DNA of 64,000 nt. It comes from Deltaproteobacteria bacterium. Its GTDB lineage: Bacteria > Myxococcota > UBA727 > VGSZ01. A model generated the notes under the pieces. The model worked only from the letters and a program-made list of their open reading frames with translations, was not told where the DNA came from and made no database searches. Location: positions 48,057-112,056 of the forward strand of contig JACOUT010000009.1 in assembly GCA_016177705.1 (NCBI GenBank). The letters run 5' to 3'. The translations under genes were made by a program, and so were the position numbers. Shown here piece by piece: positions 364-60,721 of the stretch; within the stretch, counting starts at the first letter, position 1, and every line of letters begins with the position of its first letter.

Positions 364-368
364 CCTGG

Positions 369-1165
<797 letters not shown>

Positions 1166-1169
<4 letters not shown>

Positions 1170-1696: not shown

Positions 1697-1702
1697 GGGC
1701 CG

Positions 1703-2017
1703 CTAGCTGTCGTCGCCGGGCGTCGTCGCGCCGCCGGCGTTCGCGCTGTCGTCGGCCGGGGCGCCCGGTCCGCGTCGCGAGCCCTCGGGCTCGACGATCT
1801 CGAGCGTGACGCGCAGGTTTTGCTTGGCCGCCGCCGCCGACAGCAGCGTGCGGAACGCCTTGGCGGTACGGCCCTTCTTGCCGATCACCTTGCCGAGATC
1901 GTCCTTGCCGACCTTCAAGCGGTAGATGGCGTCGCCGTCGGTGCGTTGCTCGGCGACCTCGACCGGCGCCGGATCGTCCACCAGCGAACGCGCGAGGACC
2001 TCGACGAGCCCTTTCAC
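1703..2017 (-). CDS. KH-domain RNA-binding protein (UPF0109 family)
   Basis: 104 aa with a GKVIGKKGRTAKAFRTLL KH-type motif. Conserved position between rpsP and rimM. Confidence 0.8.
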   Translation of the reverse strand: MKGLVEVLARSLVDDPAPVEVAEQRTDGDAIYRLKVGKDDLGKVIGKKGRTAKAFRTLLSAAAAKQNLRVTLEIVEPEGSRRGPGAPADDSANAGGATTPGDDS

Positions 2018-2021
2018 GAGC

Positions 2022-2279
2022 TCAGCCGTCGGCCTTCGGCGCCGCGCTCTTCGCGATCGCCAGGATGTCGCGCACCGTGTCGGACGGGCGCGCGCCCTTG
2101 GCGACCCACTGCTCGACGCGATCGATCTTGAGGTTGATGCCGTGCGCGCTCTTCTTCGGGTCGTAGGTGCCGACCTGCTCGATGAAGCGGCCGTCGCGAG
2201 GGAAGCGGTGGTCGGCGACCATCACCCGGTAGAAGGGCTTTTTGTTGGTGCCGGCGCGGGAGAGACGGATGGTGACCAT
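2022..2279 (-). CDS. rpsP: 30S ribosomal protein S16
   Basis: 85 aa, [23 protein letters not shown]..., a classic S16 N-terminus. Confidence 0.92.
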
Positions 2280-2575
2280 GCGGCGGAGTTCCTCGGGGCG
2301 GGCGCAGTCGCTGCGCGCGCGAGGGGCGAACTGGACCGCGCTCGTCGCAGGGTGTCAACCGGCTGGGCGCGCGGGTCGTGGAGGCGCCTGGAGCGCTGCG
2401 TCGTGGCCTACGCACCAAAGGGCCGTGTGGGAACCGTGGGTTCTCGACCGTTCGGCAGATAAGATCGCGATCCCGCCTTCGATCCCATAGCCCAACCCTC
2501 TGAAAGTGCCGGGTGATCGTTGGTGTGTGCGCGATCACGCAGGGCAGCGGCCTGGCTCTTGCCTACGTTGGCGAC

Positions 2576-3676: not shown

Positions 3677-3683
3677 TCGACCG

Positions 3684-3991
3684 CTACTCGGCGCAGCGCC
3701 CGTCCTCGCACACGCCCGACGGGCACGGGGTGTAGGCGACCGCGCCGTCGACGCACGAGTAGTAGCCCTCGCCCGCACACTCGGCGCCAAAGCGCGCGGC
3801 GTCGCACTCGGCCTCGGGCACGCAGATACGTTGCCGATCAGCGGGCTCGGCCGCGTCGGCGCCGCAGAAGAAGCCTCGCTCACAGTCGTCGTCGTGCTCG
3901 CAGGGCGCGCCGAGCGCGGCGCGCTGTTCGACGCCGCACGCGACCGCGAGCGTGCACAGCGAGACGCACAGCGAAGCGACCACAGCAGCCC

Positions 3992-3995
<4 letters not shown>
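3684..3995 (-). CDS. small cysteine-rich lipoprotein (about 10 Cys in ~80 mature residues)
   Basis: A GTG at 3995..3993 overlaps the TGA of the upstream gene (GTGA). The product begins MRAAVVASLCVSLCTLAVAC, a lipobox-like signal. The mature part is Cys/Asp/Glu-rich (CEHDDDCERGFFCG...CVPEAEC...C). Confidence 0.55.
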
Positions 3996-5059
<1,064 letters not shown>

Positions 5060-7238: not shown

Positions 7239-7606
7239 GCCGCCATGACGACGTGCCCGCCGCGCTGGCGCCGCTGGCCGAACCGCCGCCGCCGCCGCGT
7301 CGCACCGACGCTGCCTTTGCGCGCGCCGTCGCCGACGGCGTCAAGCAGCGTCGCGCGCCCTTCGCGCTCTGGCTCGGCGCGCCTGCGCTGGCGCTCGCTG
7401 CCGCCGGCGTCGCCATCGTGGTCGCGGGCCCAGACGGTGGGCGGGTCGCCGTCGACGCGGGCGTGACCATCGCGCGCGCCGCCGCGGTCGAGGTCGACTG
7501 GGCCGAAGAGAGCGACTTTGCGATCCCGTCGCTGGACGGGTCGACCGATGAGGAGCTGGCGCGGCTCGATCGCGCCCTCGACGAGGCCATCAAGCTGCGC
7601 CGGTGA
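7234..7606 (+). CDS. anti-sigma factor (single-pass membrane protein)
   Basis: 123 aa, translationally coupled to the sigma factor gene. One TM helix (FALWLGAPALALAAAGVAIVVAG). Confidence 0.6.
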
Positions 7607-9206: not shown

Positions 9207-10919
9207 TCACGGCACCGGCGCCGCGCTCGGGCCGCGCCGCGCCACTGCGCTCGCGTCGAGGCTGACGGCGGCGGCCAACTGTCCCGGCGTGAAGGGCTTG
9301 GCCAGGAAGGTCGCCCCCTTCTCGAGCAAGCGCGCGATGGCGCGCGGATCGGGGGAGTAGCCGGAGACCAGCACGACCCGCGGCGCTCGTGGCCTGGCGA
9401 GCAGCTGATCCGCCAGCTCAATGCCGCTCATGCCGTGCAGGTTGACGTCGGTGATGACAATGTCGATGGCATCCAGCGCGGTGGCGAGCAGCGCCTCGGC
9501 GGAGTCGAAGGTGTGGGGCGTCATGTCGGCAGCGCCGACGATCCGCGCCATCAGCGACCGAACGCGCGCATCGTCGTCGACGATGGCCACCGATCGTGGC
9601 CTGTGGTCCTCGTGGGATGTCGGCGGGATGTCGGCCGCGGCTCTCGCCCCTTCGGCTGCGAGCGGTAGCAGGACGGTGAAGGTGCTGCCGCGCCCAGGGG
9701 TGCTGTCGACGTCGATGCGGCCGCCGAGGCTGGCGGTGACGCCGAAGACCGTGGACAGCCCGAGCCCCGTCCCCTTGCCGGGCGCCTTGGTGGTGAAGAA
9801 GGGCTCGAACATGCGCTGCCTCACCTCGTCGGTCATGCCGGCGCCGGTGTCCGCGACGACGAGGCGGCACACCCGGCCAAGTTGCGCGTCGTCGCCGCGC
9901 TCCACGCGCACGCGCAGCTCGCCCTTGCCCGCCATGGCGTCACGCGCGTTGACGGCCAGGTTCATCACGATCTGCTCGAGCTGGGACGCCGACGCGATCA
10001 CGACCAACGGGCCGCCGCTCGTCTCCATCGTCACGCGCACCTGCTTGCCGACCAGCCGCTGCACGATGTCGCCCATGGCCTCGACCACGGCGCACGGGTC
10101 GAGCTCCATGGTGCGGACCACGTCGCGACGGCTGAAGGTCAGCAGCCGGCTCGTGAGCGCGCTGCCCCGCTCGGCGGCCCCGATGATGTCTCGCACGTCC
10201 TTGGCCGCTTCGCCTTGCAGGCCCGCCTCCTCCTCGAGCAGGGAAGCGCAGCCCCGAATCACCGTCAGCAGGTTGTTGAAGTCGTGCGCGACGCTGCCAG
10301 CCAAGAGGCCGCGCGCCTCCATGCGCTGGCTGTGCTCGAGCTTGAGCGCCAGTGCGTCGGCGCGCTCGCGGGCGGCGCGCGCGTCGACGCTGCGCTGCTC
10401 GAGCTCTCCCAGCAGCCGCCGCACGCTCACCGACGTCGCGATCGCCATCGCGCCCCCCAGGGCGCAGAGGAACGCGCCCTCGGCGTACACGTTGATGAGC
10501 GGCTGCACCGGCTCGGACGAGCTGGGTCCGAAGGCGAGCACCGCTTCACCCGCCAGCGCGACCGCGACCACGACGACCACGTGCTTCGGCGGCAGGATCA
10601 TGGGCGACAGCATGACGCCGAGCACGACGTAGAACGGCGCGTTGCCGGGGTTGCCTCGCAGCAGGCCGGCGGCGACGACGCCGGCGGTGCCGAGCAGGGT
10701 GAAGCCATAGCCGGCGGTCAGCACGTGGCCGCGGCGCGCGGCGACGATCAGCGCGCCGACCAGGACCAGGCCGACGACGTTGCCGACCACATCGGTCCAC
10801 TGGCCTGTCACGAGCGCCCAGCCGCCGAAGCCGGCCGCCTGGGCGAGGATGACCCAGCCGGCGCCCTGCGCGGCGCGCTGACGACGAAGCTGCTCGGTCC
10901 GGGCGTAGTCGGTGGGCAC
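9207..10919 (-). CDS. hybrid sensor histidine kinase (TM sensor, HisKA, HATPase_c and a C-terminal receiver domain)
   Basis: 570 aa. H-box HDFNNLLTVIRG. G-box GTGLGLSTVFG. Receiver VAIVDDDARVRSL…ITDVNLHGMSGIEL…AKPF. Confidence 0.9.
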   Translation of the reverse strand: MPTDYARTEQLRRQRAAQGAGWVILAQAAGFGGWALVTGQWTDVVGNVVGLVLVGALIVAARRGHVLTAGYGFTLLGTAGVVAAGLLRGNPGNAPFYVVLGVMLSPMILPPKHVVVVVAVALAGEAVLAFGPSSSEPVQPLINVYAEGAFLCALGGAMAIATSVSVRRLLGELEQRSVDARAARERADALALKLEHSQRMEARGLLAGSVAHDFNNLLTVIRGCASLLEEEAGLQGEAAKDVRDIIGAAERGSALTSRLLTFSRRDVVRTMELDPCAVVEAMGDIVQRLVGKQVRVTMETSGGPLVVIASASQLEQIVMNLAVNARDAMAGKGELRVRVERGDDAQLGRVCRLVVADTGAGMTDEVRQRMFEPFFTTKAPGKGTGLGLSTVFGVTASLGGRIDVDSTPGRGSTFTVLLPLAAEGARAAADIPPTSHEDHRPRSVAIVDDDARVRSLMARIVGAADMTPHTFDSAEALLATALDAIDIVITDVNLHGMSGIELADQLLARPRAPRVVLVSGYSPDPRAIARLLEKGATFLAKPFTPGQLAAAVSLDASAVARRGPSAAPVP

Positions 10920-11106: not shown

Positions 11107-11438
11107 TCAGCATGAGCCGCGGCGCAGCGACCGTCGGAAGTGCCCTCGCCGTCGCCATGATCGCAGGTGGATGCCGCCTGCTCGGCGTCGCGGCGCTCGA
11201 GTGCTCGGCGGACTGGGATTGCCCGACCGATCGGTGGTGTGTCGATGGGCGCTGCGCAGTCCCAACTGCCGAAGGCGAAGGCGAGGGCGATGGCGAGGGC
11301 GATGGTTGCCGGCCTCACTTGCGCGGCACCAGTCGATCGAACGCCGCGCGTCCGTGCTCGACCATCTGCGTGTCGCCGAACGACAGCAGCACGCGGACGC
11401 CGAGCTCGTCGAGCGGCGCCGCCAGATCGAGGCGATAG
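11107..11438 (+). pseudogene. small lipoprotein-like ORF with a cysteine-rich segment and a GE/GD repeat, probably a gene fragment
   Basis: MSRGAATVGSALAVAMIAGGC lipobox, then CSADWDCPTDRWCVDGRCAVPTAEGEGEGDGEGDG. The frame then runs antisense into the 3' end of the convergent Omp85 gene, so its end is not credible. It shares the (GE)n tether seen at 55.9 and 58.5 kb. Confidence 0.3.
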
Positions 11439-13051
11439 ACGCCGCGGTTGAACTGCGGGAACAGAAAGCGCACGCCGACGCCGATCGAGTGGTGCGGCTT
11501 CGCTTCGGCCGGCTCGAAGAAGATGGCGCCGGCGTCGTAGAAGGCAGCCAAACCGAGCTGGATGGTGGCGAGGTCGATGGGCAGGCTGCGCCACTCGAGC
11601 GTGCTCTGCGCCAGGCTGGCGCCGACGTCGTAGAAGGCGCTGCTCGGGTAGCCGCGCAGGCCGTTGTCACCGCCGAGCGTGACCAGCGTGTTGGTCTCGT
11701 CCTCGCGCCGCAGCGTGGTGTCGAGGCGCACGAGCAAGCGCCCCGCGAGCACGGGCGCGCTCGCCAGGCGCAGGCGCAGCGTGAGCGTGCGGTTCTTGAC
11801 CATGCCGTCCTCGAGCCGGGCGCCGCCCTCGGCGGCGGCCTCGACCAGGCCGCCCCAGGGGTCGTCGGCGATGGCGAAGGCGCCGGCGCCGAACACCGTG
11901 TCCGACGACGACAGCGCGGCCTTGCTGCCGGCGCCGATCAGCACCGACAGCGAGGGGCCGAGGCGCACCGGCTCCGAGATGCCGAAGGTGTCGAGGTCCT
12001 CGTAGATACGGTGCTTGGCGGCGAAGCCCTGGTAGGCGAGGAAGGGGAAGAGCGTGCGGCGCGTCGGCGGCAGCACCTCGCGCGCGAAGGCGTCGGCGAG
12101 CGCGGGCGGCAGCTTGGTCTCCTCGATCGGCTCGGCCGCGTCGTCGATGAAACCGACGCCGAGCGCGAGGCGGTGGACCAAGAGCTGGGTGAATTGGCGG
12201 CGCAACCTCGCGTCGATGGTGACGTTGCGCTCGCCCCAGATGCTCGGCACTTGTTCGACGGCCGGGGTGCCGGCGGCGTCCCACGGCAGCGGCTCGCCGT
12301 CGAGCATCTGACGCCGCGTGCGCGCCTCGACGCTGCCCTCGACGGAGAAGCCCCATTGCTGCGCCAGGTCGTAGAGCGGTGCGCCGGCGGTGATCAGGCC
12401 GGCGACGCCGTCGAAGCGGCCGTCGAGCCGCGAGAAGAACGCCTCGACGTGCTCGCCCGCCTCGAGCCCGCCGCCAAAGACGCGCGGGTCGTAGAGGATC
12501 TCGCCGACCGACCACGACGAGGGGTCCATGGTGAAGCGCAGCGTCGCCACCTTGGCGCGCCCGAGCAGGTTGCGCTCGGTCAGCTGCAACAACAGCCGAT
12601 CGATCGAGGGGCCGGTCACCTGGAAGCCCTGCTCGAGGCGCAGGCTCCAGAGATCGCGCACGAACACCAAGACGCCGACGGCGCCGTCGGCGGCGCGGCG
12701 CACCGGCGTCACGCGCACGAACGAGAAGATGAACATGGCGCGCAAGATGCGCGCGCTCTCGTCGAGACGCTCGAAGGGCCCGCCGACCGCGAACAGCAGC
12801 TCGCGCTCGACGACGTCCTTGGCGGTCTGCACGTGCGCCAGGTTGAACCAGTCGGGCCAGAAGTCGTCGGGCGTGAACACGTCGTGGCCGACCACGCGCA
12901 CGAAGGCGACGCGATCGCCGGCGGTCGGTGCGAACGGCGCGAGCCCCTCGCCCGCCAACACCTCGGCAAGGCGCTCGTCCTCGTAGGTGCGGGCGTCGGC
13001 GGCGCCGTCCACCTGGACGGTGAGCAAAAGGCACAGCGCGAGAGGTGTCAC
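11315..13051 (-). CDS. Omp85-superfamily outer-membrane beta-barrel protein (BamA/TamA/surface antigen D15-like)
   Basis: 578 aa. Signal peptide. A C-terminal Bac_surface_Ag-type region (GLRGYPSSAFYDVGAS…FYDAGAIF…IGVGVRFLFP…YRLDLAAPL). A short non-canonical tail follows the barrel. Confidence 0.7.
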   Translation of the reverse strand: MTPLALCLLLTVQVDGAADARTYEDERLAEVLAGEGLAPFAPTAGDRVAFVRVVGHDVFTPDDFWPDWFNLAHVQTAKDVVERELLFAVGGPFERLDESARILRAMFIFSFVRVTPVRRAADGAVGVLVFVRDLWSLRLEQGFQVTGPSIDRLLLQLTERNLLGRAKVATLRFTMDPSSWSVGEILYDPRVFGGGLEAGEHVEAFFSRLDGRFDGVAGLITAGAPLYDLAQQWGFSVEGSVEARTRRQMLDGEPLPWDAAGTPAVEQVPSIWGERNVTIDARLRRQFTQLLVHRLALGVGFIDDAAEPIEETKLPPALADAFAREVLPPTRRTLFPFLAYQGFAAKHRIYEDLDTFGISEPVRLGPSLSVLIGAGSKAALSSSDTVFGAGAFAIADDPWGGLVEAAAEGGARLEDGMVKNRTLTLRLRLASAPVLAGRLLVRLDTTLRREDETNTLVTLGGDNGLRGYPSSAFYDVGASLAQSTLEWRSLPIDLATIQLGLAAFYDAGAIFFEPAEAKPHHSIGVGVRFLFPQFNRGVYRLDLAAPLDELGVRVLLSFGDTQMVEHGRAAFDRLVPRK

Positions 13052-13139: not shown

Positions 13140-15065
13140 ATGACGTCAACCAGCACCGACACCACGAGCAAGACCAACGCGCCGCCCGTCCTTGGCGGCA
13201 ACGGGAGCCCCATGACGAGCGGGAGCACCAGCAAGAGCGGCATCGCCAAGGCGCCGGGAGGCACCGTCAGCGTCGCGAGCCTGTTCCTCGATCGCGTCGC
13301 TGCCACCCCCGACCGCAAGGCCTTCACCGTGCCGAGCGCCGGCGGTTGGAAGACGCTCACCTGGAAGGAGACGCGCGAGCGCGTCATGGCCATCGCGTGC
13401 GGCCTGCGCGCGCTCGGCCTCGAGAGCGAGCAGCGCTGCGCCATCCTGTCGGGCACGCGGCTCGATTGGATCCTCGCCGACATCGGCATCTTGTGCGCGG
13501 GCGGCGCCACTACCACCATCTACCCCCAGAACACGCCGGATGAGTGCGCCTACATCCTGAACGACTCGAACACCGTGCTCGCCCTCGCCGAGGACGACAA
13601 CCAGGTGGCCAAGCTGGTCGCCAAGCGCGCCGAGCTGCCCAAGCTCAAGCACGTCATCACCTTCGACGGCAAGCCGAGCGCCGATGGCTTCGTGCTCACG
13701 CTCGCCTCGCTCGAGGAGAAGGGCCGCGAGGCGCATGCCAAGGCGCCCGACGATTTCGAGAAGATCGCGCGCGCGGTCAAGAACGACGCGCTCGCCACGC
13801 TCATCTACACCTCGGGCACCACCGGCAAGCCCAAGGGCGTCGAGCTGACCCACGACTGCTGGGTGTACACGGCCGAGGCGCTCGAGGCCGCCGGCATCCT
13901 CGGCCTCGATGACGTGCAGCTCTTGTGGCTGCCGATGGCGCACTCCTTCGGCAAGGTGCTCGAGGTCATCCAGATCAAGCTGGGCTTCGAGACCGCGGTC
14001 GATGGGCGGCAGGACAAGCTCGTCGACAACCTGGCGGCCATCAAGCCGACCTTCGTCGGCGCCGTGCCGCGCGTGTTCGAGAAGGTCTACAACAAGGTGA
14101 TCGCCGGAGCGAAGGAAGGCGGCGGCCTCAAGTACGCCATCTTCAAGTGGGCGGTGGAGAACGGCAAGCAGGCTTCGGCGCTGCGCCAGCAAGGCAAGCA
14201 GCCCGACGGCTTCCTCGCGTGGAAGCTCGGCATCGCCGACAAGCTGGTGTTCTCCAAGCTGCGCGACAAGTTCGGCGGCCGCCTCCGATTCTTCGTCTCG
14301 GGCAGCGCGCCGCTGTCGCGTGAGGTGCACCAGTTCTTCGACGCCGCCAACATCCTGATCCTCGAGGGCTACGGCCTGACCGAGACCAGCGCGGCGTCGT
14401 TCGTCAACCTGCCGAACAAGTTCCGCATCGGCACCGTGGGCCCGCCGCTGCCCGGCACCGAGATCAAGATCGTGCCCGAGGACGGCGAGATCCTGATCAA
14501 GGGTCGCGGCGTCATGCGCGGCTACCACGGCCTGAAAGAGCAGACCGCCGAGACGCTGCGTCCCGACGGCTGGCTCGCCACCGGCGACATCGGCGAGTTC
14601 GTCGACGGCTTCCTGCGCATCACCGATCGCAAGAAGGATCTGATCAAGACCTCGGGCGGCAAGTACGTCGCGCCGCAGGCGGGCGAGGGCAAGCTGAAGG
14701 CGATGTGTCCGCTGCTCAGCCAGGTGGTGGTGCACGGCAACAACCGCCAGTTCTGTTCCATGCTGGTCAGCCTCGAGCCCGAGGCGGCCAAGAAGTGGGC
14801 GGCCGAAAACGGCCTCGGCGCGCTCTCGTACGAGGAGCTGACCAAGAACGACGCGATGAAGGCAGCCATCCAGGGCTACATCGATCAGCTCAACGCCGGC
14901 CTGGCGCGTTACGAGTCCATCAAGAAGTTCGCCATCCTGCCGAAGGACCTCACCGTCGAGGACGGCGATCTCACGCCCACCTTGAAGCTCAAGCGCAAGG
15001 CGGTCGAGACCAAGTACAAGGAGCTGCTCGACAGCTTCTACGTCGGCGCTGTCGCCGACGTGTAG
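13140..15065 (+). CDS. long-chain fatty-acid–CoA ligase (AMP-dependent synthetase)
   Basis: 641 aa with the IYTSGTTGKPKGVELTH AMP-binding motif and LEGYGLTETS. Confidence 0.88.
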   Translation: MTSTSTDTTSKTNAPPVLGGNGSPMTSGSTSKSGIAKAPGGTVSVASLFLDRVAATPDRKAFTVPSAGGWKTLTWKETRERVMAIACGLRALGLESEQRCAILSGTRLDWILADIGILCAGGATTTIYPQNTPDECAYILNDSNTVLALAEDDNQVAKLVAKRAELPKLKHVITFDGKPSADGFVLTLASLEEKGREAHAKAPDDFEKIARAVKNDALATLIYTSGTTGKPKGVELTHDCWVYTAEALEAAGILGLDDVQLLWLPMAHSFGKVLEVIQIKLGFETAVDGRQDKLVDNLAAIKPTFVGAVPRVFEKVYNKVIAGAKEGGGLKYAIFKWAVENGKQASALRQQGKQPDGFLAWKLGIADKLVFSKLRDKFGGRLRFFVSGSAPLSREVHQFFDAANILILEGYGLTETSAASFVNLPNKFRIGTVGPPLPGTEIKIVPEDGEILIKGRGVMRGYHGLKEQTAETLRPDGWLATGDIGEFVDGFLRITDRKKDLIKTSGGKYVAPQAGEGKLKAMCPLLSQVVVHGNNRQFCSMLVSLEPEAAKKWAAENGLGALSYEELTKNDAMKAAIQGYIDQLNAGLARYESIKKFAILPKDLTVEDGDLTPTLKLKRKAVETKYKELLDSFYVGAVADV

Positions 15066-15085
15066 CTCAGGCGCGGGCACCGACC

Positions 15086-16444
15086 ATGTCGCGCTGCCCG
15101 TTGCCGCTGTGCCTCTGCTGCGGCGTCCTCGCCGGTTTGGGCTGCGCGCCCACGCTGGTCGAGGACGCGCAGCTTCTGGGGCCGTTCACAACGCAAGGAT
15201 CCTTCATCGTCGACGCGCACGGCGGGCGCCTCCTGTTGCGCGGCGCCAACCTGTCGCAGACCGCCAAGAGCGAGCCCTACCACCCGGCCGAGCTCGAGGG
15301 TGAAGGGCGCGCGCTCGTGGCGGCCCATGGCCCGATGGCGATCCGCTACCTGACGTCGTGGGCGGCCATCGAGCCAGATGAGGGCGCGTACGACCAAGCG
15401 TACCTCGATGGGATGGCCGAGCGCCTCGGCGCGCTCGGTGACGACGGCCACCTGGTGGTGCTCGATCTGCACCAGGATCTGTTCGGCGTCGGTTTCGCCG
15501 GCGCCAACGGCGCGCCCCGTTTCGCATGCGACGAGAGCGCGTATGCGGCCTACACGCCGGAGTCGCCGTGGTTTCGCAACTACTACGATGAGGCGGTGCA
15601 GGGCTGCTTCGACGCGCTGTTCGCCGATGAGGCACGGCTGCGCCAGATGGCGCGCGCGCTGCGCTCCGCGGTCGACGCGGTGCAGGCAGTGGCGCCGAAC
15701 GCGCTCGTCGGCGTCGACCTGCTGAACGAGCCGCACCCGGGCAGCCGCGCGCCCGCCGACTTCGACGTGCTGTTGGCGCGCTACTACCAGATCGCGGCCG
15801 AGGAGCTCGACGGCACCGGCCTGGTCTTGCTGTTCGAGCCGAACGTGCTGCACAACCTGGGCGAGGCGACCGCGCTGTCGGCCGCGCCCTCGAGCGCGTC
15901 GCTGTACGCGCCGCACCTGTACCCGGCCGACGTCGAGCTCGGTCGCTACACGGACGTTAGCGCGCTGGCCGGGCTGCTCGCTGACGACGCCGCCGAGGCC
16001 GCGGCGCTCGGCACACCGCTCGTCATCGGGGAGTACGGGCCGAAGCTGGACGACCCCGCGGCGGTGCCCTTCGTCGAGGACGCGCTCGCCATCCTCGACG
16101 AGAGCTTCGCCGGCGCCTTCTCCTGGGACTGGTCGGCGGCGAGCGACCGCGGCCTGCTGCACGAGGGCGCCGAGGAGGTGCGTCGCGCGGAGCTGCGACC
16201 GCACGCCCGCCGCGTCGCCGGTGCGTTGGTGCGCCACCGCTTCGATCCGGCGAGCGCCACGCTCGAGGTCGAGTGGGCGGACGACGGCGCCATCGGCGCC
16301 ACCGAGATCGTGGCGGCGGGGTGGGGGACGCCCACGGTCGTCGAGCTGAGCGACGGCGGGGCCGCGCTCGAAGGGGCGCTGTTGCGGGTACGCGCGAGCA
16401 CTCAGGTCGAGACCCACCGCGTGGTGGTGTCGTTCGGCGAGTAA
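15086..16444 (+). CDS. glycoside hydrolase family 5 lipoprotein
   Basis: Start at the internal ATG with lipobox MSRCPLPLCLCCGVLAGLGC. GH5 catalytic motifs LLNEPH (acid/base Glu) and VIGEYGP (nucleophile Glu). Confidence 0.7.
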   Translation: MSRCPLPLCLCCGVLAGLGCAPTLVEDAQLLGPFTTQGSFIVDAHGGRLLLRGANLSQTAKSEPYHPAELEGEGRALVAAHGPMAIRYLTSWAAIEPDEGAYDQAYLDGMAERLGALGDDGHLVVLDLHQDLFGVGFAGANGAPRFACDESAYAAYTPESPWFRNYYDEAVQGCFDALFADEARLRQMARALRSAVDAVQAVAPNALVGVDLLNEPHPGSRAPADFDVLLARYYQIAAEELDGTGLVLLFEPNVLHNLGEATALSAAPSSASLYAPHLYPADVELGRYTDVSALAGLLADDAAEAAALGTPLVIGEYGPKLDDPAAVPFVEDALAILDESFAGAFSWDWSAASDRGLLHEGAEEVRRAELRPHARRVAGALVRHRFDPASATLEVEWADDGAIGATEIVAAGWGTPTVVELSDGGAALEGALLRVRASTQVETHRVVVSFGE

Positions 16445-16533
16445 GCTTCGTCCGCGAAGTCGATTGTGGGAAAGAGCGGTTGCCAGCGCTCGCCGGCTCC
16501 TTCTAAGGTCCGCGCGCACCTTCCGGGGATACC

Positions 16534-17436
16534 ATGGCAGATCAGCCCTCTTTCATTGGCGAGCGCGCCGCACGCCAACTCTCCAACACCACCAAGACGC
16601 CGCCGCAGTGGCGCGGCGCGAGCCCCCGCTGGCTGACGCAGATGCTGCCGTGGGTGCCGGTGGAGGCGGGCGTCTACCGCGTCAACCAGGCGCTCGACGA
16701 CAAGTTCGAGCTGCGCTGTACGCCCGACCCCGCGGCGTCGTTGCCGGTCGGCCTCTCCGACTATGAGGCGCAGCCGCGCGAGTACGTGCTCTCCTCGGTG
16801 ACGACGACCATCGCCGTGCACACGCGCGTCTCCGACCTGTTCCGCAGCCCGATGGATCAGACGAAAGAGCAGCTCACCCTCGCCATCGACAAGTTGAAGG
16901 AGAAGCAAGAGGACGAGCTGATCAACAACGCGAGCTACGGCCTGATCAACAACGCCGACCCCGAGATGCGCGTCAAGACGCGCAAGGGCCCGCCCACGCC
17001 CGACGACATGGACGAGCTGATCGCGACGGTGTGGAAGGAGCCCTCCTTCTTCCTCGCGCACCCGAAGGCCATCGCTGCCTTCGGCCGCGAGTGCACCCGT
17101 CGCGGCGTGCCGCCGCCCACGGCGACCATGTTCGGCGCGCCCTTCCTCACCTGGCGCGGGCTGCCGCTCGTGCCCTGCGACAAGCTCCGCATCAAGGACA
17201 ACAAGACAAACGTGCTGTTGCTGCGCACCGGCGAGCGCAAGCGCGGCGTGGTCGGCCTGTTCCAGCCGGGCTTGCCCGGCGAAGTGAGCCCGAGCTTGAG
17301 CGTGCGCATGATGGGCATCAACGCGCAGGGCGCGACGCAGTACCTGCTGTCGCTCTACTGCTCGACGGCGGTGTTGGTGCACGACGCGCTCGGTGTGCTC
17401 GAGGGCGTGACGGTGAACCACTATTACGACTACTGA
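16534..17436 (+). CDS. Family 2A encapsulin shell protein (HK97-fold nanocompartment)
   Basis: 300 aa, the Family 2 size class, with no cNMP-binding insertion. It lies 23 nt upstream of a SufS-like cysteine desulfurase that carries a long disordered N-terminal extension and is followed by a rhodanese gene. This is the canonical Family 2A operon arrangement. Confidence 0.55.
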   Translation: MADQPSFIGERAARQLSNTTKTPPQWRGASPRWLTQMLPWVPVEAGVYRVNQALDDKFELRCTPDPAASLPVGLSDYEAQPREYVLSSVTTTIAVHTRVSDLFRSPMDQTKEQLTLAIDKLKEKQEDELINNASYGLINNADPEMRVKTRKGPPTPDDMDELIATVWKEPSFFLAHPKAIAAFGRECTRRGVPPPTATMFGAPFLTWRGLPLVPCDKLRIKDNKTNVLLLRTGERKRGVVGLFQPGLPGEVSPSLSVRMMGINAQGATQYLLSLYCSTAVLVHDALGVLEGVTVNHYYDY

Positions 17437-17459
17437 GGGGCACGAGTACGCCTGAGCCC

Positions 17460-19103
17460 ATGAACCCGACGGATCCGCTCTCACCGGGCGAGCTGGCGCT
17501 CGTCTCCCATGCGCCGACCGACGTCGAGCGCGGCGCCACGCCGCCGCTCGCGTCGCCCGGCGTGGGCATGGCGGCGACGCGCGTGCCGAGCGGGCCGAGC
17601 CTGCCCGACGCGCATCCTGCGAGCATGCACCTGGCGGCGGCCAACAGCGGGCTCGCAAACCCCTTCTTGGCGCCGCTCGACTTCTCCTCGGTGATGGCGT
17701 CGCCGAACGCGCCTGCCTCAAGCATGCCGGCGAGCTTCTCGGTGCCGCTGTTGCGCGACGACGTCCCCGCGGCGCCGGCGTCGCCGCCCGCACCTGCCGC
17801 CGCGCCGACCCCCGCTCCGCCGGTGCTCGACCTCGGGACGCTCGGGTTTGCCCCCGTGCCGGCGCTCGACGCGCCGGCATCGAGCGGATCGTTCGACGCG
17901 CACGCGCTCAAGCGCGAGTTTCCCATCCTGCAGGAGCGCGTGCACGGCAAGCCGCTCGTCTGGCTCGACAACGCGGCCACCACGCAGAAGCCGCGCATGG
18001 TCATCGAGCGGGTGAAGACCTTCTACGAGCGCGAGAACTCCAACATCCATCGCGCGGCGCACGCGCTGGCTGCTCGCGCCACCGACGCCTACGAGAGTGC
18101 GCGCGAGACGGTACGGCGCTTCCTGAACGCCTCGTCGGTGCGCGACGTGGTGTTCGTGCGCGGCGCCACCGAGGGCATCAACCTGGTGGCGCAGGCGTGG
18201 GGCAGGCGCAACGTCAAGGAGGGCGACGAGATCGTCGTCACCCACCTCGAGCACCACGCCAACATCGTGCCGTGGCAGATGCTGTGCAAAGAGACCGGCG
18301 CCATCCTGCGCGTCGCGCCCGTCGACGACACCGGGCAGGTGCTGCTCGACGACTACCAGCGGCTCTTGAGCGAGCGCACCAAGCTGGTGGCGCTGCCGCA
18401 GGTGTCGAACGCGCTCGGCACGGTGACGCCGGCCGCGCGCATGATCGAGATGGCGCATCGCCACGGTGCGCGCGTGCTGCTCGACGGCGCGCAGTCGGTG
18501 TCGCACCTGCGCGTCGACGTGCAGCAGCTCGGCTGTGACTTCTTCGTCTTCTCGGGGCACAAGGTGTTCGCGCCTACCGGCATCGGTGCGGTGGTGGCGC
18601 CGGCCGCGCTGCTCGACGAGACGCCGCCCTGGCAGGGCGGCGGCAACATGATCCAGGACGTCACCTTCGAGCGCACCGTGTACCAGCCGGCACCGGCGCG
18701 CTTCGAGGCCGGCACCGGCAACATCGCCGATGCGGTCGGGCTCGGCGCCGCGCTCGACTGGCTGTCGCGCGTGGGGCTCGAGAACGTCGAGCGGCACGAG
18801 CACGAGCTGCTGCGCTACGGCACCGAGAAGCTGCTCTCGGTGCCGGGCCTGCGCATCATCGGCACGGCGCCGGAGAAGGCGGGCGTGCTCTCCTTCGTCA
18901 TCGACGGGCACGACACGCAGACCATCGCCAAGGCGCTCGACCAGGAGGGCATCGCGGTGCGCGGCGGGCATCACTGCGCGCAGCCCATCCTGCGGCGCTT
19001 CGGACTCGAGAGCACGGTGCGTGCCTCGCTGGCGCCGTACAACACGCTCGAGGATCTCGACGCGCTGACGGCCGCTTTGTGTAGGATGGTGGGCGTCCGC
19101 TGA
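17460..19103 (+). CDS. SufS/CsdA-like cysteine desulfurase with a ~150-aa disordered N-terminal extension (putative encapsulin cargo)
   Basis: The class-V aminotransferase core starts near ALKREFPILQERVHGKPLVWLDNAATTQKP and includes HHANIVPWQ and FSGHKVFAPTGIGA. The N-terminus is Pro/Ala/Ser-rich low complexity. Confidence 0.85.
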   Translation: MNPTDPLSPGELALVSHAPTDVERGATPPLASPGVGMAATRVPSGPSLPDAHPASMHLAAANSGLANPFLAPLDFSSVMASPNAPASSMPASFSVPLLRDDVPAAPASPPAPAAAPTPAPPVLDLGTLGFAPVPALDAPASSGSFDAHALKREFPILQERVHGKPLVWLDNAATTQKPRMVIERVKTFYERENSNIHRAAHALAARATDAYESARETVRRFLNASSVRDVVFVRGATEGINLVAQAWGRRNVKEGDEIVVTHLEHHANIVPWQMLCKETGAILRVAPVDDTGQVLLDDYQRLLSERTKLVALPQVSNALGTVTPAARMIEMAHRHGARVLLDGAQSVSHLRVDVQQLGCDFFVFSGHKVFAPTGIGAVVAPAALLDETPPWQGGGNMIQDVTFERTVYQPAPARFEAGTGNIADAVGLGAALDWLSRVGLENVERHEHELLRYGTEKLLSVPGLRIIGTAPEKAGVLSFVIDGHDTQTIAKALDQEGIAVRGGHHCAQPILRRFGLESTVRASLAPYNTLEDLDALTAALCRMVGVR

Positions 19104-19114
19104 CGGCCCCACCC

Positions 19115-20038
19115 ATGAAGCTCCTCTCGCCCGTCGATCTGCAAGCGCTGCTCACCACCGACGTCGACATCGTCGACGTGCGTGAGCCCGCCGAGTGGCT
19201 GACCGGGCACGTGCCGGGCGCGCGCCTGGTGCCGCTCGCGCAGCTGCGCGCCGATCCCAGAGGTGCTTTGCCGCGCGACAACGTGGTGTTCATCTGCGCC
19301 AAGGGCAAGCGCAGCGAGACGGCCGCCGAGGTGGCGATGCAGATCGGGCGCGCGCAGGTCTACAGCTTGTCGGGCGGCACTGACGCCTGGCGCGCCGCCG
19401 GCCTGCCCATCGTCATGCCCGAGGCGCAGCGCCTCGCCCGAGGGGAGGGCGAGCCCGTGGCGCCGGTCGCCGAGCCCGAGCTGGACGCGCTGGTCGGCGC
19501 CAACCTGCACGCGGAGCGCAGCGCGCGCGGCCTGTCGCTCGACGACCTGGCGCGCGACTCGGGCGTCAGCCGCACGCTGCTCGGCCAGATCGAGCTCGGC
19601 CGCACCGTGCCGTCCATCGGCGTCATCTGGAAGATCGCGCAGGCGCTCGGCGTGCCCTTCTCGACGCTGTTGGCGAGCGCGGCGCCGCGCGTCGGCACCA
19701 CCATCACCGAGCGCGAGCAGGCAAAGAAGCTGACCTCGGCCGACGGCCGCTTCTCGTCGCGTGCGCTCTACCCGCTCGGCGACGCGCACGCCGCCGAGTT
19801 CTACGAGCTGTGGATGGCGCCGCACAGCCGCGAGGACGCCGAGCCGCACCGCCCGGGCACGCGCGAGAACCTGATCGTGGTCTCGGGCAGGCTCGAGTTG
19901 AAGGTGGGCAACGACAGCTTCCAGCTCGGCAAGGGCGCGGCGGTCAACTTCTCCGCGGATCAACCGCACAGCTACATCAACCGCTCCGGCGAGGAGTGCT
20001 GGATGTACCTGGTGATGAACTACGCCGGCCGCAAGTAG
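19115..20038 (+). CDS. rhodanese-domain, HTH_XRE and cupin fusion protein (putative sulfur-responsive regulator)
   Basis: N-terminal rhodanese (VDVREPAEWLTGHVPGARLVP…ICAKGKRS, active-site Cys). Middle XRE HTH (LSLDDLARDSGVSRTLLGQIELGRTVPSIGVIWKIAQALGV). C-terminal cupin. Confidence 0.7.
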   Translation: MKLLSPVDLQALLTTDVDIVDVREPAEWLTGHVPGARLVPLAQLRADPRGALPRDNVVFICAKGKRSETAAEVAMQIGRAQVYSLSGGTDAWRAAGLPIVMPEAQRLARGEGEPVAPVAEPELDALVGANLHAERSARGLSLDDLARDSGVSRTLLGQIELGRTVPSIGVIWKIAQALGVPFSTLLASAAPRVGTTITEREQAKKLTSADGRFSSRALYPLGDAHAAEFYELWMAPHSREDAEPHRPGTRENLIVVSGRLELKVGNDSFQLGKGAAVNFSADQPHSYINRSGEECWMYLVMNYAGRK

Positions 20039-52983: not shown

Positions 52984-53664
52984 CTATTGAAGGTCGAACT
53001 GCGCTTCGCAGTTCTTGTCCTCGGTCATGATGAGCTCGACCGGGCCGGTGCCCGCGCAGTCGACCTTCCACTCCACGAACACCGAGCCCGGATCGGGGGT
53101 GGGTGTCAGCGTGTCGATCTCGCCCACGAAGTAGGCGCCAACGCAGTCGGGCGGACAGTCGATGCGCGGCGTGCCGCCGCCGCCGCCCTGGTTGGTCAGC
53201 GTGCCGGTGATGGTGCCGCTGCCGGTGCCCGAGAACAGCACCTGCAGCGTGTGCACCTGGCGAAACTCGGCGCTGCACGTGACGATGGTCTCGGCCGGGT
53301 CGTCGGCCAGCACCGCCTCGATGGTGTCGTCGACCAGCTCGCGCTGCGCGGTGGTGCCGTCGGGGAAGGTGACGCCGCACAGCGCGTCGATCAGGTTGGC
53401 GTCGCGCGACGGCTCGACGCGCACGCTCATGGCGGTGCCGGGCACGACGGTGATGCTCTGGCTGTCACAGGCGCCGTCGCAGTCGATGCCGTCCGGGTCG
53501 GAGCGGTAGCTGCCGGTGCCGTCGCCGGTCTTCTGCACCGTCAGCGTGACGCCCGGCGGGCCCGCGTCGGCGTCCGGGTTGGGGCCACCGGGGCAGACCA
53601 ACGGGCAGGCGGGCAGCGCCGCGAGCGCCGTCATGGTGAGCAGGGTAGTGGCCGAATGCGTCAT
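52984..53664 (-). CDS. secreted lipoprotein with two InlB-B-repeat-like domains
   Basis: Signal/lipobox MTALAALPAC. Two repeats of the GxGxGTx…DGIDC…C…V…G…V pattern. Confidence 0.55.
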   Translation of the reverse strand: MTHSATTLLTMTALAALPACPLVCPGGPNPDADAGPPGVTLTVQKTGDGTGSYRSDPDGIDCDGACDSQSITVVPGTAMSVRVEPSRDANLIDALCGVTFPDGTTAQRELVDDTIEAVLADDPAETIVTCSAEFRQVHTLQVLFSGTGSGTITGTLTNQGGGGGTPRIDCPPDCVGAYFVGEIDTLTPTPDPGSVFVEWKVDCAGTGPVELIMTEDKNCEAQFDLQ

Positions 53665-54224
53665 GGCTCCACCGCGGGGTCGAGCGGGTCGCTGCCGCGA
53701 CAGGTCTCGACCAGGTTGGTGCAGGCGGCCGGGTCGCCGCCGCTGCAGCTATCGTCGAGGTCGCACAGGGGCACGGTGGCGCCGTCGAGGACGACGCCGG
53801 CCGAGCCCGCGAAGGTGTCGAAGCGCATGTCGAGGCAGGAGCCGTCCGAGATGGCCTCGGCGGGCATGATGAAGGTCGCCGTCGGCTGCACCTCGTCGAC
53901 GAGCGCCAGGTCGCCCTGCGCCTGCGCCAGCACCAGCTCGAGGCCATCCTCGCGCCCGAGCGGCCGGTACCAGTCGATGGTCAGCTTGCGCACCAGGCCG
54001 GGGGCGATGTCGGCGGTACCCGACGTCGTGTTGGCGGCGGCGTCGTAGCTGAGCGGGTAGGGCTCGTCGTAGCCGCTCACCCACAGCCGCGCCGTCAGGT
54101 CGGCCGGCGGCGCGGCGCACTCGACGGCGAGCGCTTGAGGGTTCTCGATGGCGATGGTGGCCGGCTCCGACGGCGCGCACGCCGCCAGCGCCACCAGCAG
54201 CAGGCCGAGAACGCGCCCGCTCAC
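53661..54224 (-). CDS. hypothetical lipoprotein
   Basis: GTG start overlapping the upstream stop (GTGA). Lipobox LLLVALAAC. Cysteine-containing secreted domain. Confidence 0.5.
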   Translation of the reverse strand: MSGRVLGLLLVALAACAPSEPATIAIENPQALAVECAAPPADLTARLWVSGYDEPYPLSYDAAANTTSGTADIAPGLVRKLTIDWYRPLGREDGLELVLAQAQGDLALVDEVQPTATFIMPAEAISDGSCLDMRFDTFAGSAGVVLDGATVPLCDLDDSCSGGDPAACTNLVETCRGSDPLDPAVEP

Positions 54225-55790: not shown

Positions 55791-58268
55791 ATGGGGGAAC
55801 GTCGGACTGCGCTCGCTGCGGCCGTGTGCGGCTGCCTGCTCCTCGGGGCATGCCCTGGACGCACCCCCGATCGTGGAGGCGAGGGCGAAGGAGAGGGAGA
55901 GGGCGAAGGAGAGGGCGAAGGAGAGGGCGAAGGAGAGGGCGAAGGAGAGGGCGAAGGAGAGGGCGAAGGAGAGGGTGAAGGAGAACCTACATGGCACCGC
56001 GACCTGCCCAAGGTCGAGGTGTATGCGGTGTCGAACCAGCCTGACGCCATCCGACTCGCAGGGCGATCCTACGCCGCGGGTGAAGCCTGCCTCGTGCAGG
56101 AGATCGGGCTCGACGGCACCATGGGCGCGAGCGCGTCGCTCCCGGTCAGGTGCATGGCGGGCGCTCTCGATGCAGCCGGCGGTGTGTTCATCGCGCGGGG
56201 GCCCGCCAGCGTCGAGCTCCCTGGCGGCACACTGACGCTCTCGTCGAGCCAGCGCGCGCTCATCCGCCTGCCTTTGCAGGGGCCCGCGGTGGCTGCACTG
56301 CTCCTTTACGAGGATGAGCCCTTCCAGATCGCCGTCACCGCCACGGGCGTCGTGGCCCTCGCCAGTTGGAATGGCGACACGACCGTGACCACCTACGCTC
56401 AGGGCAACACGGGCCGCGGCATCGTGGCGACCGGCGCGCCGGTCACGCGGCTCGGCTCCGGTGACGAGCTCTTGACTGCCGTGACGCGCAACGCCGCCGG
56501 TGAGGCGCGCCTCATTGCCATCGATGCCGCGACGGCCACGACCCGCTGGAGCGCCGCTTTGCCCCCGGGGACCAGCCCCTACGACACGTACCCGTCGTCG
56601 AGCATCGACGGCGTTCGAGTGTGCGGCAATCGCGCCGATGGTGACACGTCCGAGGGCTTCGTCCAGTTGCGAGACCTCGTCACGGGTTCGGTATTGCGCG
56701 AGCAGGCTACGCCGGCCGAGGTGCTCGCGTGCTCGCTCGGCGACGAGGGCAGTACGTGGACGATCGGATCAGATGTCCTTGCGCGCCTCGACCCGGATCC
56801 GGCGCAGTTCGAGCTGCTCACGGCCCAAGAACACACCGAAGCCGCCTTCATCGCGCAGCTCGCCGGCGACCTCCTCGTCGTCGCGACCGTCAACGCCACC
56901 GCGGACCGCCTGCCGCCGCTCGAGCCAGGACGCATCGGCGGCACCCCCGGCACCTGGACCACGCTGGTCGCGCGCGTTCCGCCCCAACAGCTGCGCACCG
57001 ATGACGGGCTCGCCCCCATGCACCAGGCGGACGGCTTCGCGCGCGACGGTGCGAGCTGGATCGCAAGCTCGGAGACGTGGCCGATGTCCATCGAGGTGGA
57101 GCCGGCATCTGGTGACATCATCGTGACGAAGGCCGGGCCTAGGTGGTGCGACATCGATCGGCTGTCGGAGGACGGCAGCAGCCTGCTGCACCGGCGCTTC
57201 GAGGTCGCGCAGTCCATCTATCCCTCGTGCAAAGGGGCCGCCATCGAATCGAGCACGTTCGTGGCTGTCGGCAGCCACAACGCCGTAGCGCTCGACGTGA
57301 CCGTCGACGGTCAGGTGGTCCAGCTCCCGGCGGGTTCGCACCTCCTGCTCGCGCTCGACGACGCTGCGGTGGAAGTGGGGCGCGTGCAGCTGCAAGCCAG
57401 CACGGTGAGCCTGACCGCCGACGGGGACGCTCTGCTCGTCTTCGACGGCGGCTTCCAGTGGGATCCTCCGCAGTTGCGACGCTTCGGTCCCGGGCTCGTG
57501 GACCTTGGCGCTGTCGAGATCGCCATGACTCGTCTCTTGGCCTTCTCCGGATTTGAGCCCGGTGTGCCGCGCGTCATTTCGCTGCAGGGCGGCGACGCGC
57601 TCGTCGTGACCCCCGCCCTCTACTGGACCATCGACGTCACCTTCGATGACGACAGCGTCGCGAGCGTCCCGGGCGAGGGATCGTTGGCGTTCCGCGTTGC
57701 TCCCGACGGCCGCATGCGCTGGGTCGTCGCGTTCCCGGGGCACAATGGATCCATGGACCCGCCGCGGGTGAAGGACGCCGCCGTCGACCAAGCGGCCGCG
57801 ACCGCGGAGCTCTGTGGCGGCACCTTGGGCGGAGAGGTCATCGACGGGCGGTCCGGGGCAGCAGTGGCGACGCTCGTCGGTCCCGCCTATGCCGGCTTCT
57901 GCCTCGAGCTCGACCTCGCCAACGGCAGCGTGCGCGCCCTGCACCAGCCCGCCGGCACGAGTGAAGTCACCGCCGTCGCCTTTCTCGCCGGTGAGCCGAT
58001 CGTCGTCATCAACGACGGCAGCTACCACAACCTCACCCTCCGGAGACTGCACGACGGGATCGATCTGCCCAGGTTGTTGGTCGGCAGCGCGCTCCCGCCG
58101 CGTTCGGTGCTCGTCGCCGGCCCCGCGGACCGGTACCTGCTCCTCGGCGCCTTCGCGGCAGCTCACGCCGACGCCTCGGCGATCGTGCCCGGCTTCGAGT
58201 TGCCCGGGGTGGCGGGGTACTACGACGGCTTCGTCACGCGCATCGACGCCTCGTGGCTGTCCCCGTAG
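55791..58268 (+). CDS. large lipoprotein with an N-terminal (Gly-Glu)~17 tether and an 800-aa domain of unknown function
   Basis: Lipobox CLLLGAC, then the GE repeat, then EPTWHRD…. No catalytic motif recognised. Probably beta-rich. Confidence 0.6.
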   Translation: MGERRTALAAAVCGCLLLGACPGRTPDRGGEGEGEGEGEGEGEGEGEGEGEGEGEGEGEGEGEGEPTWHRDLPKVEVYAVSNQPDAIRLAGRSYAAGEACLVQEIGLDGTMGASASLPVRCMAGALDAAGGVFIARGPASVELPGGTLTLSSSQRALIRLPLQGPAVAALLLYEDEPFQIAVTATGVVALASWNGDTTVTTYAQGNTGRGIVATGAPVTRLGSGDELLTAVTRNAAGEARLIAIDAATATTRWSAALPPGTSPYDTYPSSSIDGVRVCGNRADGDTSEGFVQLRDLVTGSVLREQATPAEVLACSLGDEGSTWTIGSDVLARLDPDPAQFELLTAQEHTEAAFIAQLAGDLLVVATVNATADRLPPLEPGRIGGTPGTWTTLVARVPPQQLRTDDGLAPMHQADGFARDGASWIASSETWPMSIEVEPASGDIIVTKAGPRWCDIDRLSEDGSSLLHRRFEVAQSIYPSCKGAAIESSTFVAVGSHNAVALDVTVDGQVVQLPAGSHLLLALDDAAVEVGRVQLQASTVSLTADGDALLVFDGGFQWDPPQLRRFGPGLVDLGAVEIAMTRLLAFSGFEPGVPRVISLQGGDALVVTPALYWTIDVTFDDDSVASVPGEGSLAFRVAPDGRMRWVVAFPGHNGSMDPPRVKDAAVDQAAATAELCGGTLGGEVIDGRSGAAVATLVGPAYAGFCLELDLANGSVRALHQPAGTSEVTAVAFLAGEPIVVINDGSYHNLTLRRLHDGIDLPRLLVGSALPPRSVLVAGPADRYLLLGAFAAAHADASAIVPGFELPGVAGYYDGFVTRIDASWLSP
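55876..55985 (+). repeat. tandem 12-nt repeat (ggcgaaggagag)n encoding (GEGE)n
   Basis: Near-perfect 12-nt periodicity over about 110 nt inside the lipoprotein gene. Confidence 0.85.
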
Positions 58269-58321
58269 CCCGGCGAGGTGCGCGGGTCTTCGACCGTGCC
58301 CGCACGCAGGCGCGCCGCGCC

Positions 58322-58383
58322 GATCGCCGCGGTAGCGCGCGGCATCAAGAAGATGGTGCAGCAGGTGGTTGCGTGGTCCTAGC
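58322..58383 (+). repeat. relic duplicate of the 3' end of elbB (about 18 codons plus stop)
   Basis: 58322..58383 encodes IAAVARGIKKMVQQVVAWS*, versus PIAAVARGIKKMVQQVVAWA* at 55633..55692. The nucleotide differences are mostly synonymous. Confidence 0.8.
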
Positions 58384-58432
58384 GGACCGTTGAAAAACGA
58401 GCGGCTGGGCAGCCTGTGCCCGAGGAGCCGCC

Positions 58433-60721
<2,289 letters not shown>

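Follow-up and report, generated by a model that had tools for sequence, protein, structure and literature searches.

What are the long runs of alternating glycine and glutamate, (Gly-Glu)n or (GE)n, that stand near the N-termini of two neighbouring genes in the 64,000-nucleotide stretch of DNA analysed here (the window), and why are they there? The window has a G+C content (GC) of 71.5% and comes from the NCBI metagenome-assembled genome (MAG) 'Deltaproteobacteria bacterium', whose locus tags begin with HYS27_. Our reading, to which we give a probability of about 0.7, is that (GE)n is a translated, intrinsically disordered, polyanionic tether, a signature of its lineage that has arisen repeatedly by slippage and has been kept for its composition. 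A preliminary description made from the sequence had pointed to two neighbouring open reading frames (ORFs) on the + strand with unrelated C-terminal parts, and both points are confirmed: the ORFs lie at 55791..58268 (gene 1) and 58433..60721 (gene 2), and the body of gene 1 matches no family while that of gene 2 is a GSDH domain followed by a diheme cytochrome. The two genes are laid out as follows.

55791..55853, + strand: gene 1 lipoprotein signal peptide, lipobox L-G-A-C with Cys21 at 55851..55853 (from the translation)
55854..55877, + strand: gene 1 pre-tract linker PGRTPDRG, +2 to +9 after the lipidated Cys (from the translation)
55878..55985, + strand: gene 1 (GE)18 tether, 108 nucleotides (nt), 12-nt unit GGC GAA GGA GAG (GGCGAAGGAGAG)
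55986..58268, + strand: gene 1 folded part, about 750 residues, all-beta, probable tandem beta-propeller, orphan family
58433..58507, + strand: gene 2 signal peptide with the atypical lipobox region LSPSC18-T-C20, then GPAPA
58508..58585, + strand: gene 2 (EG)13 tether, degenerate 6/18-nt repeat, 78 nt
58757..59761, + strand: gene 2 glucose/sorbosone dehydrogenase (sGDH) beta-propeller dependent on pyrroloquinoline quinone (PQQ), residues 109-443, PF07995
59810..60703, + strand: gene 2 SO2930-type diheme c-type cytochrome domain, residues 460-757, TIGR03806

The two tracts are alike as peptides and different as DNA. The gene 1 product begins with MGERRTALAAAVCGCLLLGAC and PGRTPDRG, continues with (GE)18 and goes on as PTWHRDLPKVEVYAV..., and that of gene 2 begins with MRIAVVASLLTLALSPSCTCGPAPA, continues with (EG)13 and goes on as EPTCEPQPGVPGL...; the counts are thus 18 and 13, not the 13 to 17 dipeptides initially reported. 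Near-perfect 12-nt repeats had been described for both tracts and are a property of gene 1 only, where Tandem Repeats Finder reports a period of 12 with 8.9 copies of GGCGAAGGAGAG, 93% matches and a score of 172, and where the period-12 run is unbroken for 80 nt (55896..55975). The tract of gene 2, in contrast, is a degenerate repeat with a period of 6 at 84% matches or 18 at 87%, and its longest perfect run is 35 nt. Chance is excluded as the origin of such tracts, because (GE)13 is expected only about 3e-29 times in a six-frame translation. The suggestion of a recent expansion likewise fits gene 1, with its 80-nt perfect run, and fails for gene 2, where the DNA is degenerate and the orthologue has (EG)14 followed by the same EPTC. 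Gene 1 would then carry a fresh 12-nt expansion and gene 2 an old tract that has decayed synonymously.

The public annotation leaves the tract of gene 1 out. The NCBI protein (MBI1946879.1, HYS27_14380; P0001 below) has 749 residues and starts at an internal GTG, Val76, which lies after the tract, so that the signal peptide, the lipobox and (GE)18 are dropped (55791..56015) and an exported lipoprotein is recorded without its signal. Three observations argue that the tract is nevertheless translated. An in-frame signal peptide upstream agrees with PROSITE PS51257 ({DERK}(6)-[LIVMFWSTAG](2)-[LIVMFYSTAGCQ]-[AGS]-C, with the Cys at position 15-35 and K or R within the first seven residues), having the lipobox LLGA-C, Cys21, and R4/R5 in the n-region. 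The similarity between gene 1 and its paralogue P0002 (HYS27_22435) runs upstream past the NCBI start codon (DLP.V). Two homologues from other assemblies, which are 28-30% identical to gene 1 and are annotated with lipobox, GE tract and Trp-initiated domain, have the same layout: MLAAC-PPPAVQPTDGGQ-(GE)3-PLHGW in P0123 and VLAGC-TGACDGRSPQ-(EG)5-A-(EG)3-EAFGGWW in P0124. A search with full-length gene 1 had drawn candidates dominated by GE words, with two matches scored, and an exhaustive HMMER search of 1.84 billion representatives was used instead, its query being a profile of gene 1 and P0002. It returned four proteins (P0001, P0002, P0123 and P0124), and the GE tract is found in both family members (2/2) that come from outside this MAG.

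It could be objected that the repeats are mis-assembled, or that they are untranslated and the real start lies downstream. The position of the NCBI start agrees with this, as does the habit of contigs to end inside GE-coding repeats: the Logan contig L004, assembled independently from run SRR12113419, stops within the repeat of gene 1 (L004 1612..1659, corresponding to window 55878..55925), L003 stops within another GE tract (9819..9842), and so do many of the metagenome contigs L085-L164 (Logan and Joint Genome Institute, JGI). We regard an artefact as barely credible all the same. L004 agrees letter for letter with the window until it ends within the repeat, the in-frame signal peptide described above precedes the gene 1 tract, a GAGGAG ribosome-binding site stands at the ATG of gene 2 (a Shine-Dalgarno sequence 5 nt upstream of it), and the same architecture recurs across independent assemblies, samples and gene families. 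An assembly artefact was also what the preliminary description had named as fatal to its claim, and as an explanation of where the tracts come from it is refuted by their presence in independent assemblies, orthologues and paralogues. Since short-read contigs break at GE tracts, the copy numbers of such tracts in MAGs are provisional, and this includes the 18 units of gene 1, where the independent assembly stops; doubt is confined to the exact copy number of the perfect run in that gene.

A signal peptide with a lipobox had been claimed for both genes, and for gene 1 the claim stands. Gene 2 does not conform to PS51257, as Pro stands at -2 of Cys18 and Thr at -1 of Cys20. In 15 clade orthologues, most of which have a canonical lipobox, conservation of the Cys at this position is at least 90%, and gene 2 is therefore probably lipidated, i.e. 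a lipoprotein; judged by its sequence, it is certainly exported. A second Cys 1-3 residues past the presumed lipidated one (58484..58492 in the window) is frequent among the clade's GSDH-cytochrome orthologues, in the forms SC-TC, C-ASC, C-DSC, C-EC, DC-AC and C-GRC (window, P0003, P0005, P0007, P0008, P0009, P0015 and the L001 orthologue at 2595-4892).

Do the two genes then share a tether module, as was first proposed? At the DNA level they do not: the repeat units, the codons and the flanks are unrelated. The unit is GGCGAAGGAGAG in gene 1 and GAGGGC/GAAGGC in gene 2, the codons are GGC/GGA with GAA/GAG in the former and GGC/GGT with GAG/GAA in the latter, and the likeness of the two genes lies within that of shuffled controls both for the signal-peptide DNA (z 1.6) and for the 60 nt after the tract (z -0.6). 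With units and codons that differ and flanks no closer than shuffles, the resemblance is best explained by convergence, and the two tethers look like independent tracts that have come to encode the same peptide. A shared or duplicated module was rejected on comparisons of the DNA and protein flanks. The motif EPT(W/C) is indeed present after both tracts, as EPTW in gene 1 and EPTC in gene 2. The E-P-T codons, GAA CCT ACA and GAG CCG ACC, differ in third positions only, and the fourth codon, TGG (Trp) against TGC (Cys), differs in its third position with a change of residue. EPT is too short a motif for interpretation, even though the syntenic gene 2 orthologue also has EPTC.

Gene 2, searched without its tract, has thousands of homologues. 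A run of (GE)3-14 stands shortly after a lipobox-like Cys in 13 of the roughly 15 that are closest and full-length (51-71% identity), in contrast to only one of about 95 that are more distant (Myxococcaceae, Polyangiales, Gammaproteobacteria and others), the rest of which have other low-complexity linkers, such as DAG, GGS or TDT, at the same position. Locus L001 (70% GC) is syntenic with the window, its MMPL gene being 82% identical, and encodes at 2595-4892 the syntenic orthologue of gene 2, which is 73.5% identical as a protein and has (EG)14 followed by EPTC. That orthologue is one of two tandem GSDH-cytochrome paralogues (L001a and L001b, at 232..4892), 71% identical to each other and with (GE)4 and (EG)14, respectively; the window has a single copy where L001 has two. 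Nearby in these loci, four unrelated lipoprotein ORFs have a tether as well. L001 encodes an unrelated lipoprotein of 763 residues with (EG)10. In L002 a lipoprotein of 388 residues has a total of more than 15 GE dipeptides, spread over several interrupted runs, as well as a second, internal GE tract. It is the first gene of an operon (13378..20003) with a TonB-dependent receptor, a periplasmic binding protein, a FecCD permease and an ABC ATPase, a layout reminiscent of surface-lipoprotein-assisted uptake systems.

A census of 84 loci (1.30 Mb) gave the same picture: each of the clade loci (L001-L005) contains (GE)n of at least four units, and the 79 loci from other phyla, which total about 1.24 Mb, contain none. 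When JGI metagenomes were scanned for the pattern (GARGGN)10, at least 120 stretches were returned, and about 13 of the 80 loci examined (L085-L164) have a high-GC ORF with a lipobox followed by (EG)n of at least ten units, the others being inter-domain linkers, repeats in other reading frames and tracts at contig ends. No bacterial GEGEGE tether is described in the literature that we searched, and the literature on low-complexity linkers and on Myxococcus gave nothing relevant. From these sequence comparisons, the (GE)n tether is a signature of a small, uncultured, Myxococcota-like 'Deltaproteobacteria' lineage of about 70% GC and is not peculiar to the two genes of the window.

The codons of the tracts bear on how they are made and kept. 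In the genes of the window GAA makes up 6% of Glu codons, and GGA and GGT make up 3% and 7% of Gly codons. In tract 1, GAA is 50% of Glu codons and GGA 50% of Gly codons (9 of 18 in each case); tract 2, with 8 GAG, 5 GAA, 10 GGC and 3 GGT, has 36-38% GAA, depending on the bounds chosen for the tract, and 23% GGT. In nine clade genes taken together, the share of GAA among Glu codons is 54% in the tracts versus 19% in the bodies of the same genes, with a Fisher p of 3e-10 that is inflated because repeat units are copied and hence not independent. Every internal variation within the two window tracts is synonymous, and the gene 2 tract and that of its L001 orthologue, with 13 and 14 units, differ in their synonymous patterns. 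A peptide that stays strictly Gly-Glu despite synonymous variation rich in rare codons, together with the nearly equal lengths of the orthologous tracts, indicates that slippage generates the tracts, most recently in gene 1, and that the peptide is what is selected. We propose that tracts would lengthen and shorten by in-frame replication slippage of GARGGN units of 6, 12 or 18 nt, and that selection would act on the composition and approximate length of the peptide and not on the DNA repeat. These units are all multiples of three, so slippage would alter the tether by 2, 4 or 6 residues and provide no on/off switch. A phase-variable contingency locus was rejected, the tracts of 108 and 78 nt and their units all being in frame.

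The rare synonymous codons GAA, GGA and GGT are enriched in the long GE tracts (window 55878..55985 and 58508..58585; L001 2673..2756 and 7486..7545), and the short (GE)4 tract has just one non-preferred Gly codon (GGG). This enrichment may reflect selection against perfect, unstable repeats or a relaxation of codon selection.

Slippage raises the question of whether selection is needed at all. In a neutral explanation the tracts are microsatellites whose products are tolerated, since any linker works at this position, and their GE flavour follows from the GARGGN bias of a 70% GC genome. The fresh 12-nt expansion in gene 1 is what such a process would leave behind, the lengths among homologues are wide (3 to more than 18 units), other lineages have other low-complexity linkers at the same position, and in the metagenomes GARGGN repeats also occur in non-GE frames and in contexts that do not look coding. 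Neutrality is harder to reconcile with the position of the tract, which is kept across family members down to 28% identity, with a peptide that remains pure despite heavy synonymous decay, with orthologous tracts of 13 and 14 units, and with the finding that in the clade loci all in-frame tracts lie in proteins with a signal peptide or lipobox and none was seen in other genes. We consider the neutral explanation unlikely on balance, and favour a tether that has been kept for its composition.

Several points weigh against that preference and should be stated together. The restriction of variation to synonymous sites is inflated, because slippage copies units that are already mixed and the events are not independent. 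A tight requirement for length is hard to square with tracts that range from 3 to more than 18 units. The more distant orthologues manage with DAG, GGS and TDT linkers, so there may be no need for Gly-Glu in particular. A bias also attaches to the locus census, in which most of the clade loci were chosen because they encode such proteins. The strict lipobox rule is not obeyed by gene 2 or by its two closest relatives. Directly upstream of the locus, on the - strand, lies a canonical lipoprotein ORF (53661..54224; MSGRVLGLLLVALAAC followed by APSEPATIAIENPQ...) without a GE tract, so the tether, as this ORF starting at 54224 shows, is not universal among the lipoproteins of the organism.

What the tracts might do can be approached from their physical character. 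The segment from the Cys to the fold comprises 46 residues in gene 1, with a net charge of -17 and a contour length of about 166 A, and 36 residues in gene 2, with a net charge of -14 and a contour length of about 130 A, which amounts to -0.37 to -0.39 net charges per residue. The AlphaFold2 (AF2) model of gene 1 has no secondary structure over residues 1-65, with predicted local distance difference test (pLDDT) values of 25-33; this and the net charge of -17 over 46 residues bear out the flexible, acidic spacer that had been suggested for it. Highly charged disordered chains are expanded, and such a chain would be repelled by anionic membrane surfaces. In exported proteins the tether would thus link the folded domain to the N-terminal lipid anchor, or to the signal-peptide cleavage site, and may hold a catalytic or binding domain off the membrane as an expanded, membrane-repelled spacer.

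Efficient Lol-type sorting to the outer membrane may also require the tether, as it requires other disordered lipoprotein linkers. About half of the outer-membrane lipoproteins of E. coli have disordered N-terminal linkers of more than 22 residues, on which optimal Lol trafficking depends, and an E. coli linker can be exchanged for an artificial disordered peptide of similar length (El Rayes et al., bioRxiv 10.1101/2021.01.05.425367). Counted after Cys+1, the 46 and 36 residues of gene 1 and gene 2 both exceed this length, with disorder predicted by AF2 for gene 1. By analogy with such linkers we infer a spacer or sorting function and the cellular location of the carriers. Disordered N-terminal linkers matter for lipoprotein sorting, and a single lineage that has converged many times, in unrelated proteins, on a pure polyanionic dipeptide repeat of variable length offers a comparative series for the effects of tether charge and length.

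A more specific role is conceivable, in which the trafficking machinery recognises acidic (GE)n and directs its carriers to the outer membrane or the cell surface, in the manner of the lipoprotein export signal (LES) of Bacteroidota. There, surface export is driven by a short acidic motif, C-X-K-(D/E)2-X, which is position-critical at +3 to +5 (PMC5080379). The GE tract always lies 4-25 residues from the lipidated Cys, and its carriers include proteins expected outside the inner membrane, namely the PQQ dehydrogenase-cytochrome fusion and the L002 lipoprotein encoded with a TonB-dependent receptor. Neither K-(D/E)2 nor Q-A-(D/E)2 is found at +3 to +5, however, since the residues from +2 to +6 are PGRTP in gene 1 and TCGPA in gene 2, and the acidic residues begin at +6 to +9 or later, at a distance that varies among homologues. 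The tract is also far longer than a recognition motif needs to be, and GE tracts occur internally as well, as in the second tract of the L002 lipoprotein and the metagenomic inter-domain linkers. Recognition as a sorting or surface-export signal is for these reasons very unlikely. Broader, and a shade less doubtful while still a long shot, is the idea that (GE)n is a lineage-specific addressing element or a molecular ruler, whose charge and length are read by the envelope machinery or whose repulsion sets the height of the domain, heritable and tunable by slippage in steps of 2-6 residues. We favour a spacer and sorting-permissive tether, with a specific addressing role as a low-probability alternative.

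The domains that the tethers carry differ. Neither Pfam nor NCBIfam has a family for the body of gene 1, whose match to PQQ_2/BamB is weak and sub-threshold, and with four representatives among 1.84 billion proteins the gene defines a very rare orphan lipoprotein family. An AF2 model from four sequences shows all-beta blades with moderate confidence (pLDDT 63, predicted template modelling (TM) score 0.52), compared with a pLDDT of 42 from two sequences. Its top Foldseek matches in the PDB are all tandem WD or beta-propeller proteins, with E about 1e-12 and a TM score of only about 0.2. On the strength of the all-beta model and of top matches confined to propellers, we call the body a probable tandem beta-propeller. 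Its codon bias is weaker than that of its neighbours, with a GC content at third codon positions (GC3) of 0.86 against 0.95 in gene 2 and with 21% GAA against 3%, and gene 1 may be expressed at a low level or have been acquired recently. The P0124 gene (L205 8773..14135; GCA_964580865.1, CAZONM010000115.1) adjoins a LolCDE-like cluster on the opposite strand, with two MacB_PCD/FtsX permeases, an ABC ATPase and a TP_0789/LolA-like protein, which could be a coincidence.

Gene 2 has matches to two families, and a record identical to its product was not found. PF07995 (GSDH) matches with E 9.2e-44 and 150.5 bits, above its cutoff of 25, and TIGR03806 covers model positions 2-313 of 314 with 249 bits and E 5.1e-74, below its curated cutoff of 313; JGI names the homologues 'TIGR03806 family', and gene 2 has two CxxCH motifs, CLSCH and CSMCH.

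A third, fragmentary copy of the module had been placed at 11107. What is found there is an unannotated ORF that starts at 11112 and is not established as a gene.

11112..11438, + strand: unannotated stub ORF with lipobox IAGGC, 'RLLG', a Cys-rich motif and then EGEGEGDGEGDG (11271..11306)

Its only GE sequence is EGEGEGDGEGDG. The ORF agrees with PS51257, has a weak coding signal (GC3 0.75), overlaps with its tail the convergent gene at 11315..13051, and has no homologue at E <= 10 among 5.8 billion proteins. Its N-terminus is 44% identical over 43 residues to that of the metagenomic lipoprotein L109 (pairwise E 0.002), and similar layouts are found in the metagenomic GE-tethered lipoproteins L104, L131 and L147. 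In these four and in the stub ORF (11112..11306) a Cys-rich module of the approximate form C-x5-C-P-x4-C-x-DG-x-C, sometimes after 'C-RLLG', separates the lipobox from the GE tract; at E <= 0.01 it is matched by none of the Pfam and NCBIfam models. The stub ORF is possibly the remnant of a gene for a GE-tethered lipoprotein.

The surroundings of gene 1 and gene 2 give no hint of a dedicated system. The nearby genes encode an ElbB glyoxalase upstream and an MMPL transporter downstream on the opposite strand, as well as a Ser/Thr kinase, FabH and a nitronate monooxygenase, and scans for Rfam families, promoters and terminators gave no match. A functional pairing of gene 1 and gene 2 was rejected because their adjacency is not conserved in L001, where an unrelated gene lies upstream and neither of the two unknown neighbours is a homologue of gene 1. 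For the annotation of these organisms the practical consequence is that their exported proteins are systematically mis-called, as pipelines shorten such genes and short-k assemblies break at the tracts.

How does the GE tether compare with known systems? In the R region of staphylococcal ClfA and the Sdr proteins, a stalk of Ser-Asp (SD) dipeptide repeats, encoded by a degenerate 18-nt DNA repeat and variable in length, projects the ligand-binding domain. The GE tether is likewise an acidic dipeptide repeat of variable length, whereas the SD stalk is Gram-positive, C-terminal and beside an LPXTG wall anchor, glycosylated, made of other residues and not homologous to it. In the surface lipoproteins of Borrelia a disordered N-terminal tether connects the lipid anchor to the fold and is involved in surface localisation; unlike the GE tether, it is non-repetitive, not polyanionic and spirochaetal. 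ORF15 of the vertebrate RPGR gene is comparable in having a long, purine-rich Glu/Gly repeat that poses difficulties for sequencing and assembly, but its protein is eukaryotic and ciliary, its repeat is a substrate for glutamylation, and the two are linked neither in function nor in evolution.

The LES of Lauber et al. (2016) also places acidic residues soon after the +1 Cys; it takes up 3-5 residues, in contrast to GE tracts of 6-36 residues with a variable start and without a Lys or polar lead residue, and belongs to a different phylum. The nearest concept on record is that of the Gram-negative outer-membrane lipoprotein linkers of El Rayes et al. (RcsF, NlpD, Pal). They resemble the GE tether in that they directly follow the lipidated Cys, exceed 22 residues, are predicted to be disordered and precede unrelated folded domains, their sequence being free to vary as long as it is disordered. 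The GE tether differs from them in being a pure dipeptide repeat with a charge of -14 to -17, in its slippage-prone DNA and in being the style of a whole lineage. It is a variant of the known disordered lipoprotein linker, specific to its lineage and evolved by convergence.

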